In this document: positions 12,355-54,995 of the stretch, piece by piece | Layout: each line of letters opens with the position of its first letter | How positions within the stretch are numbered: position 1 is the stretch's first letter | NCBI GenBank assembly: GCA_022827685.1 | Contig: JAJEIH010000117.1 | Coordinates: 198 to 64,197, forward strand | DNA from: Alphaproteobacteria bacterium | Lineage (GTDB): Bacteria; Pseudomonadota; Alphaproteobacteria; Bin95 | Direction of reading: 5' to 3' | DNA length: 64,000 nt | The notes under the pieces: model-generated | What the model saw: only the letters and a program-made list of their open reading frames with translations | Told to the model about the DNA's origin: nothing | Databases searched by the model: none | Translations under genes and position numbers: made by a program

Positions 12355-12929
12355 TGTCATAGAATGTCATGTTTTGTCATGTTCCGCATGACGGGGATTC
12401 ATATCCTGTAGCCGGTTCAGGCATGAAGATGCCACTGCTTCGTCCCTTTCATTGCCTCCCCGAGCCCCTTTCGTCTCCCCTGTGAAGGCAGGGGGCCATC
12501 CTCGACCCGCGATGCCACCGCAGCCGTTCGGCACCGGGCCGGGCCGCCGAGGCTGCCGGGAGAGCCGGGGCTGGTCCGGATCGGGGGCTTCCTGCATGTC
12601 GTTCCTTCATCTCGTTTCGTTCCACTCCGTTCCGTTCTCCCCGCCGCCGGCCTGTCCGGCAGCGGATCCCTGTTTCGCGCGTATCCTGCGCGGGCGCCCG
12701 TGCGCGTGCCGGCGCGCGTATCGCGGCGGCGCGGCTCGTGCGCCTGATTGCGCGCGCGAGTCGCAGGGCGCACCTCTCCTGTGCGTTTCTCCGGGGTTTT
12801 TTCGCGCCGGCGCGCACGGCGAAACGAAGCGGCCTCGCGAATGCCGCTTCCTTCCTTCATCCTAATCTAGCATAAAATTTCGATATGTCAATGTCATTAT
12901 CAGAAATATTACCAAAATTTTATGAACAA
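12355..12929 (-). repeat. Dispersed intergenic element, copy A (putative promoter-driven structured RNA or non-autonomous element)
   Basis: Colinear similarity to 53716-54381 from TTGACA-N16-TAGATT (12891-12864) through the GC core to three ATGACA repeats (12355-12380). Confidence 0.8.
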
Positions 12930-12936
12930 AGGCATC

Positions 12937-53628: not shown

Positions 53629-53715
53629 GATGTCCTCTCGCCGACGGCCGGCAACACCATAGCCCGCCCGGGTCCGGCCGTCCACAACGGGCCGGACGCC
53701 ATGCGGGATAGTGGC

Positions 53716-54381
53716 AGGAATAAGAACATTCCAGAAAATTATCTCTATTCATACTTGACATCCCGGCGGCCTGCTCCCAGATTGCGGCGGGTGGAAGGGG
53801 ACGGCGATCCGGAAGCCGCCCCGCCTTGCGCCGGCGCGGGAAAGGCCCCGGGGAGCGGACGGGCGAGGTGCGTCCCGCGTCCGGCTCGCGCGTGCGGGCG
53901 CACAGGCGCAATCAGGCGCGCGAACCGCGCCGCCGCGATACGCGCGCCGGCGGGCGCGGGCGCGCGCAGGATACGCGCGAATCAGGGTCCCGCCGCCAGG
54001 GCAGGCCGGCGGTGGGGAGAGCGGAACGAAAGGGAACGAACCGGGATGAAGGAACGAGATTCATACCGAGGAGCGCAATGCAGAACCGATGTCCTGGGGG
54101 TGCTCCATTGTGCTCCCCTCCCGCTCGGCGGGAGGGGTTGGGGGAGGGCCTCTCGGTGTGACGGGCCGTTGCCGGGCTTCGCCCGCCGCCGCTTCCGCCA
54201 GCGCGGAAGCGGCCCCCCACCCGGCCTCCCCCGCAAGCGGGGGAGGAGCTTTTCGGCATCGGCCCTCATGCCCGAACGGGCCACCGCCTATGCACCGGCG
54301 GCATGCGGATCATGACATCTCATGACATATGGCGCTGTCTCCCGCCGGGCCGCATGACAAAACATGACATCCCATGACATG
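53716..54381 (+). repeat. Dispersed intergenic element, copy B
   Basis: TTGACA(53755)-N17-CAGATT, hairpin, GC core homologous to copy A, GGAACG decamers, five CATGACA repeats (54311, 54321, 54353, 54363, 54373). Confidence 0.8.
54112..54249. repeat. REP-like double-hairpin repeat nested in element copy B
   Basis: CCCCTCCCGC/GCGGGAGGGG and CCTCCCCCGC/GCGGGGGAGG hairpins bounded by GCTCC...GGAGC. Confidence 0.7.
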
Positions 54382-54419
54382 CCCGTGGGGTGGGCCCCCG
54401 GGCCGGGAGCCGGTCCGGC

Positions 54420-54995
54420 TTACGCCGCCTGCCCCTCGCGGCGGAAGGCGGCGCCGGCGTGTTCGGGCTGGTCGGTGCGGAAGACGAGGTCGTCCACGGG
54501 CGCGCCCGATTCGTAGCGGGCCAGCAGCTCGTCCGGGTCGAAGAGCTGGCCGACGGGATCGCGCGCGAAGGTTTCGCTGCGCATGAATTCGCCGGCCTGG
54601 GCCAGGTCCATCATGTCGATCTGGAACTCCAGCCCGTTGCCGTCCGGGTCGCGGTAATACATCGAGAGCGTGAGCCCGTGGCGGATCGGCCGGTAGGGCA
54701 GGATGCCCATGCCCTTCAGCCGCTTGTAGGTGTCGAGCAGCTCGCCCAGGTCCCGCCAGGTGTAGGCGACATGGTGGACGCCCGCCTCGTCCGGCCGGCG
54801 CGCCGCCGCGCCCTCCGGCGCGGGCCCGAGATTGATGAAGGCGAAGCGGTGGTGCTCGTCGTCATAGGTCAGGAACGCCAGCCGCTCGTCCCGGTGCTGG
54901 ATGCGCGCCTCGAAGACGCGGGCATACCAGTCGATCATCTCCTCATGGCGGTGGGTGTTGTAAACGATATGGGCGAACTTGCTGGGCGCGACCAT
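54420..54995 (-). CDS. VOC family protein (single-domain, biphenyl-2,3-diol dioxygenase III-like)
   Basis: PSKFAHIVY.T, FLTYDDEHHR, HHVAYT, HGLTLSMYYRDPDGN.LEFQID. Confidence 0.85.
   Translation of the reverse strand: MVAPSKFAHIVYNTHRHEEMIDWYARVFEARIQHRDERLAFLTYDDEHHRFAFINLGPAPEGAAARRPDEAGVHHVAYTWRDLGELLDTYKRLKGMGILPYRPIRHGLTLSMYYRDPDGNGLEFQIDMMDLAQAGEFMRSETFARDPVGQLFDPDELLARYESGAPVDDLVFRTDQPEHAGAAFRREGQAA

Follow-up and report, generated by a model that had tools for sequence, protein, structure and literature searches.

Analysis of a 64,000-nucleotide stretch of DNA (the window; positions 198 to 64,197 of contig JAJEIH010000117.1, assembly GCA_022827685.1) from a bacterium of the Alphaproteobacteria showed that two of its intergenic regions, named copy A and copy B, belong to a genus-specific family of dispersed repeats. 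A complete unit of the family carries a single gene, for a protein with the DNA-binding domain of the phage small terminase subunit (TerS), and copies A and B carry no family open reading frame (ORF). Both copies were read as non-autonomous members whose ends act in cis, probably as sites for the TerS-like protein, and this reading as a whole was given about even confidence. In the proposed mechanism, intact copies would supply the TerS-like protein in trans, the two conserved ends would be cis-acting DNA sites, most probably platforms for that protein, recombination between copies would keep the units alike and reshuffle them, and the units would serve as breakpoints of genome rearrangement. 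The genome holding the window (4.3 Mb, 167 contigs) is denoted G000, contigs are given C-numbers, and the 16 congeners examined are given further G-numbers.

The original prediction had described the two regions as colinear homologues, each with an AT-rich tract, a promoter, a hairpin, a core and terminal repeats, and all of these features were found in both copies. The alignment of A with B was colinear, with a mean column identity of 76% over 722 columns and 86% over the central 155 nt. The features of copy B and then of copy A were as follows.

53716 to 53754, plus strand: AT-rich upstream tract of copy B, family motif GTTC..GAAATAATTC, 5' of the -35 box
53755 to 53783, plus strand: promoter-like stretch of copy B, TTGACA at 53755-53760, 17-nt spacer, CAGATT at 53778-53783
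53797 to 53822, plus strand: 5' hairpin of copy B, GGGGACGGC / GCCGCCCC with one A-C mismatch, just past the predicted transcription start
53790 to 54057, plus strand: GC-rich leader (core) of copy B, conserved in sequence, with GCAATCAGG/GAATCAGG and two occurrences of GATACGCGCG (at 53937 and 53970)
54050 to 54161, plus strand: Shine-Dalgarno (SD)-like AAGGAACGA and altered start of copy B, the family start position reading ATT (54058-60)
54105 to 54262, plus strand: GC-rich palindromic repeat of another family inserted in copy B, hairpins at 54115-54137 and 54225-54246
54263 to 54311, plus strand: conserved 3' module of copy B, CTCATGCCCGAAC...ATGC-loop-GCATGCGGATC
54312 to 54379, plus strand: CATGACA arrays of copy B, two repeats (54312, 54322), 26-nt spacer and three repeats (54354, 54364, 54374), 10-bp period
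54380 to 54404, plus strand: 3' tail of copy B, TGCCCGTGGGGTGGGCCCCCGGGCC, common to several copies and near-identical in the G005 orthologue
12864 to 12930, minus strand: AT-rich tract (12930-12892) and promoter of copy A, TTGACA at 12891-12886, 16-nt spacer, TAGATT at 12869-12864
12826 to 12850, minus strand: 5' hairpin of copy A, GAAGCGGC / GCCGCTTC
12598 to 12857, minus strand: leader (core) of copy A, running to AAGGAACGAC; positions 23-374 of the family's profile hidden Markov model (HMM), score 316
12367 to 12597, minus strand: 76-codon ORF of copy A, from the family SD and ATG (12597-12595) to a TGA inside the repeats, without relatives and not conserved
12381 to 12428, minus strand: conserved 3' module of copy A, CTTCATGCCTGAACC...CATGCGGAAC
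12355 to 12380, minus strand: three ATGACA repeats of copy A, at 12380, 12370 and 12360, 10-bp period

The ATG at 54078 of copy B, within ATGCAG, opens a 27-codon ORF without relatives. A variable spacer had been noted before the terminal repeats; it is present, but in copy B it holds the unrelated palindromic repeat at about 54105 to 54262. That repeat (CTCCCCTCCCGC..GCGGGAGGGG ... CCTCCCCCGC..GCGGGGGAGG) gave about 30-40 blastn matches genome-wide and also lies within the bodies of several other units. The -35 region of copy B (ACTTGACATCCC) and its 3' repeat unit (ACATGACATCCC) were identical at 11 of 12 positions, and the -35 box CTTGACAT is one base apart from the 3' repeat CATGACAT. Neither A nor B gave a tblastn match to the TerS-like protein or to ORF2, the product of a second class of units. 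An N-terminal peptide pattern, M-R/Q-x-A-G/D..SFGG, is common to A, B and some other copies, and a pattern search for longer versions of it in five complete genomes returned one match.

A blastn search with copy B returned 60 loci covering the core in the genome (67-87% identity), which bore out the claim that the element is multi-copy and places the likeness far above chance. The profile HMM, made from the promoter and core of 48 aligned copies, raised the count to 106 matches (about 100 loci), 63 of which span the interval from the promoter region to the start codon. Contig ends terminated about one-third of the profile matches, so these repeats break the assembly, and nearly all matches uncut by contig ends start in the promoter region. 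DNA searches detected the core in 14 of the 16 congeneric species, with no match in G001 and G003, two marginal matches in G013 and weaker matches in G008. Beyond the genus, 14 genomes were searched, 2 from the same family and 12 from others, and none gave a match. An exact 22-nt core motif occurred 53, 34, 30, 5 and 1 times in five complete congeneric genomes, and its reversed control did not occur. Public records bearing the core were metagenome-assembled genomes (MAGs) labelled ‘Alphaproteobacteria bacterium’, ‘Defluviicoccus sp.’ or ‘Rhodospirillales bacterium’, and the sequencing runs that best contained the window stretch (shares 0.39-0.67) were labelled sponge metagenomes. A full-length leader was also present on a contig of a ‘Bryobacterales bacterium’ MAG (record CBDBZZ010000043.1), all other records being alphaproteobacterial; this record is probably a binning error.

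All units followed one order, 5' to 3': AT-rich tract, CTTGACAT, -10-like zone, hairpin, leader, SD and ATG, body, and repeats. AT-rich composition begins about 40 nt 5' of the -35 box (73 ungapped copies). The -35-like box is almost invariant, 87 of 107 copies agreeing with at least 5 of the 7 positions of CTTGACA, and C is nearly excluded from the -10-like zone (2-4 of 87) in a GC-rich genome, the zone being otherwise variable in sequence. The GC-rich leader of about 270 nt holds GCGCCGGCGCGAAAAAA, CGCGCAATCAGGCGCGCGAACCGCGCCG, GATACGCGCG twice, GAATCAGGGTCCCGCCGC and purine-rich GGAACGA repeats, and it is followed by an SD-like AAGGA, an ATG and a body of 0 to about 960 nt. The 3' end is made of ATGACA repeats with a 10-bp period, typically two repeats, a 26-nt spacer and three repeats.

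The units lie in intergenic DNA. Relative to the downstream gene, 25 were co-directional, 23 convergent and 14 undecided, and on this absence of orientation bias a role as mobile promoters was rejected. Core-motif strands on C1 of G015 were 9 plus and 6 minus up to 1.9 Mb and 5 plus and 14 minus beyond 2.8 Mb, with none between, and on C3 of G007 they were 14 plus and 17 minus followed by 16 plus and 6 minus; a replichore bias in these by-eye counts was not significant, the position of the origin not being known. The repeats were also considered as Pho boxes (reverse complement TGTCAT-N4-TGTCAT), a candidate set aside on period, since theirs is 10 bp and that of Pho boxes is 11 bp.

The complete unit is about 1.4 kb long and contains one gene, which encodes a protein of 305-345 amino acids (aa) and has its stop codon within the CATGACA repeats. 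The promoter and leader preceded the terS-like ORF in 22 of 30 fetched loci, the remaining 8 being cut by contig ends. Longer copies carrying an ORF had been proposed as something to look for, and they were found both as these terS-like units and as ORF2 units. The intact terS-like copy of this genome lies at C87:73-1068, and stop-free matches to the protein numbered 6-14 per genome in 12 of the 16 congeners, with none found in G001, G003, G008 and G013. A word-index search with the protein scored 8000 candidates, of which 325 were relatives at E <= 0.001; among the 120 listed, nearly all carried Pfam PF03592, and some are named ‘terminase small subunit’ by NCBI. Terminase_2 (PF03592) scored 46-48 bits (cut-off 26.1) in the copies on C18, C37, C45 and C68, over model positions 1-64 only.

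An AlphaFold model of the TerS-like protein, made with 42 sequences, was all-helical, with a mean predicted local distance difference test score (pLDDT) of 64.9 and values above 90 at residues 11-60. The best Foldseek matches of this model were to the small terminase of SF6, an SPP1-like phage, including the full-length structure 3zqq (E 2e-3). The SF6 DNA-binding domain 4zc3 matched with a template modelling (TM) score of 0.85, a root-mean-square deviation of 1.3 A and 42% identity over 55 columns; 4zc3 and 2cmp together gave TM scores of 0.85-0.86 and 40-42% identity. The N-terminal half of the protein is a small terminase of the SPP1/SF6 type, with a helix-turn-helix (HTH) DNA-binding domain and a helical core. 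Paralogues had a mean column identity of 65% with about 100 invariant columns, the first 260 residues or so being strongly conserved. The tail is variable and either acidic or basic, and the first ATGACA repeats encode its end, ...APDHD(K/R)T.

A search of 300 further alphaproteobacterial genomes (253 genera) at E <= 1e-25 did not turn up the long form of the protein. A profile search of 1.84 billion representatives placed it in only a handful of 50%-identity clusters, and most matches of that search covered only positions of about 10-115. Among IMG/VR viral contigs there were only three loci, all distant HTH matches at 34% identity, so no phage source was identified. No transposase-like domain was detected; Pfam, PHROGs, NCBIfam and PADLOC gave only Terminase_2 or small-terminase HTH matches, NCBIfam and PADLOC held no family for either the TerS-like protein or ORF2, and the ESM Atlas (scores of 0.83 or less) was uninformative. 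The second class of units is defined by ORF2, which has 106 relatives, all ‘hypothetical’ and several per genome, and no Pfam, NCBIfam or PADLOC family. Fifteen full-length units were flanked by unrelated host DNA with only other small repeats in common, and no large terminase gene stood beside the terS-like gene.

Two further observations concern the placement of terS-like units. A terS-like C-terminal fragment at G000:C1:11-202, at the start of the contig of the window, points to a third unit abutting window position 1. At L162 (G015:C1:4125617-4129531), a 478-nt stretch 5' of a full-length unit recurs immediately 3' of that unit at 92% identity.

The short copies are internal-deletion derivatives of longer, gene-bearing members with which they have both ends in common. 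They contain no family ORF, some keep the first terS codons, and both ends are kept; on C66 and C83 the first terS codons are fused to the tail. Most short copies also retain the SD and ATG. Copies of the ORF2 type showed nested deletions and inserted foreign repeats, and the variable body is the former site of the family's gene. Among 110 ATGACA-array sites, 74 had a same-strand core no more than 1.6 kb upstream, 22 were too close to a contig end to judge and 14 were orphans, of which 11 were two-repeat matches and one was an artefact of overlapping coordinates. The core itself did not prove to be a decayed protein-coding gene, since copies differ by 2-nt insertions and deletions, which marks it as non-coding, and it lies 5' of the start codon in intact units. 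A conserved small peptide was rejected as well: a 31-aa ORF (MPKTRSRRNRMEYPEP...) occurs in about a dozen copies, but the same 3' module is read elsewhere in another frame, in 41-aa ORFs ending ...HADHDIS, so the small ORFs are not conserved as proteins.

Comparison with congeners placed many copies at orthologous sites in other species and others at points of rearrangement. The site of copy B is occupied in G005, where the flanks are about 99% identical and the interior differs; this orthologue has lost the promoter and most of the core and carries a different module between the arrays. The flanks of copy A lie inverted in three congeners, 130 kb from each other in G005, where each adjoins a terS fragment, and about 10 kb from each other in G007 and G012. 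Other elements coincided with synteny breaks between replicons or with extra DNA in relatives.

The ends were read as cis sites for the TerS-like protein because the retained promoter, leader, ribosome-binding site (RBS) and start codon, together with the phased repeats, resemble the packaging site (pac) of phage SPP1. PMC6316719 describes SPP1 pac as overlapping the promoters PL1/PL2, the RBS and the start of gene 1, with gp1 binding both pacL and pacR, and the title of a paper cited there states that the terminase represses its own production. Three sets of direct repeats in pac are described in PMC4737164. By this analogy the TerS-like protein would bind the ends of the units, and any effect on packaging, transduction or regulation would follow from such binding. 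Candidate effects are autoregulation, capture of the motor of an infecting phage (with in-situ transduction or decoy defence), and another route of copying.

Several results weigh against this reading. The packaging partners were missing: Terminase_3 and TerL_ATPase gave no match in any of the 17 genomes of the genus, Terminase_6N gave none in this genome, and an HK97-type capsid was found in only 2 of the 17, the control genomes being positive in all of these searches; with no large terminase and almost no capsid genes, a packaging role would need an infecting phage. ORF2 has no similarity to the TerS-like protein, yet its units have the same ends. The C87 copy scored only 13 bits against Terminase_2, because 18 residues of its HTH are deleted. 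At about 270 nt the leader greatly exceeds the promoter-to-gene interval of SPP1, and the isolated SF6 DNA-binding domain binds pac DNA with little preference for sequence, according to PMC4737164. A strict sigma-70 test was passed by only 19 of 107 copies, against 112 of 2140 shuffles. The copies are old, with a median pairwise identity of 78%, a nearest-neighbour median of 86.7% and a maximum of 96.6%. The search for empty sites that had been suggested succeeded in part: the copy at 33.2 kb of C46, the one presence/absence site examined, was absent in G005, G007 and G014, but no target duplication was present, and the junction held additional unique sequence of about 105 nt and 50 nt. Without a clean junction or duplication at this one clear site, active spread is not shown. 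A difference of 860 nt at C46:22.5 kb was rejected as a candidate, being an ordinary unique gene and not the element.

A more specific proposal is that the family is a minimal ‘terS plus pac’ element, in which the protein from some 10 intact copies would mark about 100 sites for capture of a phage motor or for the element's own copying, copies A and B being pac-only hitch-hikers; we advance it only tentatively, as an improbable version. The marked sites would be the promoter-leader region and the phased CATGACA arrays, and the element would do without an integrase, a transposase or structural genes. If the motor of an infecting phage were captured, adjoining host DNA would be transduced in situ, and the outcome would be genome-wide lateral transduction, decoy defence, or both. 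Alternatively, the marking would drive copying of the units themselves.

The units might instead be kept for a functional RNA, each copy being transcribed from its own promoter as a structured leader or small RNA, or acting as a cis-regulatory 5' untranslated region in intact units, with ORF-less copies retained for regulation, for titration of an RNA-binding protein or for a guide-like variable body. The recurrent promoter-like layout given above, the SD and ATG held by most short copies and the absence of a terminator inside the element all fit this explanation. The promoter of copy A matched 10 of 12 consensus positions with an extended TG (0.1 such sites expected in shuffles), and a relaxed test was passed by 37 of 107 copies. 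The claim that each copy has its own promoter thus held for the -35 box, and the -10 box was weaker, that of copy B failing a strict sigma-70 consensus scan, which returned no sites there. The 5' hairpin lies directly after the predicted start, and the covariation proposed for its stem was upheld. Its helix was 90% paired in 59 distinct copies, against 36-67% in slid controls; AU and GC pairs were exchanged at two pairs, in 8 and 10 copies, and 4 of 8 pairs showed double changes. Double-change cells numbered 26, a count reached in none of 500 shuffles (12.8 +/- 2.9).

Beyond that hairpin, the core is conserved as sequence, and a structure is not supported. RNAalifold on the cores of 60 copies gave -16.7 kcal/mol and 19 pairs with 0 compensatory pairs, and the second helix tested, the stem before the SD, was mostly invariant or changed on one side. 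A global structure of the core was rejected after two RNAalifold runs gave different weak structures, and all helices except the two tested were dropped. Rfam returned no match at gathering score in the whole window, in agreement with the earlier statement that the element resembles no known RNA class; at E <= 1 the only match in 53700-54420 was a chance one to SAM-SAH within the unrelated insert, on the minus strand, with 17.4 bits where the cut-off is 40. One of 20 listed sequencing runs was RNA, and its contigs covered 54373-54700 only, the stretch of the neighbouring gene, and contigs do not reveal where transcripts start. Conservation at the level of sequence suits a protein-recognition site in DNA or RNA better than a fold. 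A functional RNA also fails to explain the co-retained CATGACA arrays and sits poorly with a 3' module that occurs in two frames with unconserved small ORFs, and on balance we consider it unlikely. Of the two alternatives in the original prediction, a structured RNA family was weakly supported, by the hairpin and not by the core, and a non-autonomous element tied to a protein encoded elsewhere gave the best fit.

It is quite unlikely that the copies are inert remnants of an ancient burst of terS-like and ORF2 units, decaying by internal deletion and homogenised by ectopic gene conversion, with ends that have no function. Such an origin would agree with the age and divergence of the copies, with the many orthologous sites in other species, with the replaced interior of copy B between 99%-identical flanks, with the loss of promoter and most of the core from its G005 orthologue, and with the other insertion sequences (ISs) found within elements. 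Yet solo ends are nearly absent: only 2-3 arrays of at least three repeats were without a core, against 74 with one, and uncut profile matches nearly always start at the promoter region. Conservation is specific to motifs (the -35 box, the C-free -10 zone and the compensated hairpin) and adjoining spacer positions vary, a pattern that blanket gene conversion would not give, and the terS-like ORFs have stayed intact with their invariant columns.

Classical elements of the kind of miniature inverted-repeat transposable elements (MITEs), moved by an unlinked transposase or recombinase such as those of adjoining IS110-family or DDE elements and carrying terS-like and ORF2 as cargo, would account for internal-deletion derivatives with both ends (typical of non-autonomous transposons), for an IS110-family insertion exactly in a CATGACA array with the same IS end after a G012 array, and for the copy on C46 missing from three relatives, but this origin is very unlikely, as the ends of neither A nor B form an inverted pair (as had been stated for both), no target-site duplication, clean empty site or near-identical copies were found, the single assembled IS110 copy uses the array as a target and its ends are not in common with the element, and TerS-type and ORF2-type leaders form separate clusters, so that leader lineages co-diverge with their cargo class, which argues against shuffled cargo.

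Other elements had inserted into units or lay between their parts. The IS110-family element, 1.48 kb long, is at L189:15001-16478 (G000:C90:22500-23978), carries Pfam DEDD_Tnp_IS110 and Transposase_20, and sits exactly between repeats 3 and 4 of a CATGACA array. Its site is empty in G005 and G007, an 84%-identical copy lies elsewhere in G007, and the same IS110 end follows the third ATGACA of an array in G012 (L156). A module of about 200 nt (...GCGCGCATTATGCGCG...CCTTGCAAACGA...) separates the two-repeat and three-repeat arrays of some units, at L192:1761-1958 (G000:C118:5260-5457) and at L140, the G005 orthologue of copy B. Orthologous units differ in whether they have this module, its junctions overlap by 17 nt, and it looks like a small insertion that targets the arrays. 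In G005, at L206:497-2353 and L207:342-2198, an element of about 2 kb with a gene for a 619-aa DDE_Tnp_1 transposase breaks the leaders of two units at a similar profile position (about 295-304) in opposite orientations. Downstream of a unit in G007 (L205:767-5848), two CATGACA arrays flank a 1694-aa ORF that has Calx-beta and He_PIG domains, and the corresponding unit in G000 has a single array. At G000:C4:11860-13000, a 195-aa ORF that by eye resembles an isochorismatase-family hydrolase stands between a leader and a three-repeat CATGACA array, and it may be a host gene enclosed by one unit or by two unit remnants.

Copies A and B are of a known kind, namely non-autonomous derivatives of dispersed units. 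We know of no precedent for their parent, a terS-like gene that stands alone, has a promoter-leader and a repeat array of its own, and is present about 100-fold in genomes without terminase or capsid genes. A literature search on small terminases, sponge symbionts and multi-copy intergenic repeats found no account of such elements, and the family appears to be undescribed.

Among known systems, the small terminase of SPP1/SF6 (G1P/gp1) has the same DNA-binding domain, and the promoter, RBS, gene start and direct repeats kept in the units recall SPP1 pac, in position only. Unlike the phage locus, each unit is isolated among host genes, with about 100 units per genome, and searches of the genus found no large terminase and hardly any capsid genes. 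The family protein is twice as long as that of SPP1/SF6 and has an additional helical region, which is conserved, as well as tails that are acidic or basic; the family also has a longer leader and, at the gene's 3' end, a second repeat array. MITEs and other non-autonomous IS derivatives likewise occur as many short, gene-less copies with both ends of longer members, and the copies described here are, like them, intergenic, in either orientation and coincident with rearrangement breakpoints. Unlike MITEs, they have neither terminal inverted repeats nor target duplications, every copy has a promoter-like region, the parent has an all-helical model and no transposase-like domain, and the copies are old.

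In phage satellites such as the phage-inducible chromosomal islands (PICIs, including the Staphylococcus aureus pathogenicity islands, SaPIs) and the minimalist PICMI islands, a TerS homologue redirects the packaging of a helper phage to the element's own pac site. The family resembles them as a chromosomal element that encodes a TerS homologue without a large terminase. It differs in that the unit, at about 1.4 kb, has only one gene and no integrase, replication functions or regulatory module, has no known helper, is several-fold smaller than the known satellites of this type and is present in about 100 copies instead of one. Repetitive extragenic palindromic (REP) sequences are targets of IS110-family elements, and the units resemble REP sequences and bacterial interspersed mosaic elements (BIMEs) as high-copy intergenic repeats that draw site-specific IS110-family insertion; they differ in their length (480-1500 nt), the lack of a simple palindrome, the promoter-like signals and the protein-coding origin.

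The units are breakpoints of inversions and of exchanges between replicons of different species, and they break short-read assemblies, so they matter for genome comparison. The CATGACA arrays are a natural target of an IS110-family element and offer a defined target for studying how that recombinase chooses its sites. If the proposed reading is true, units built around a phage DNA-recognition protein make up about 1-2% of the genome in a genus of sponge symbionts that is without a recognisable packaging enzyme or capsid. The family would then be a tractable case either of a new design of selfish element or of host use of pac-like sites, and such use by the host would bear on gene exchange and phage resistance in uncultured symbionts.

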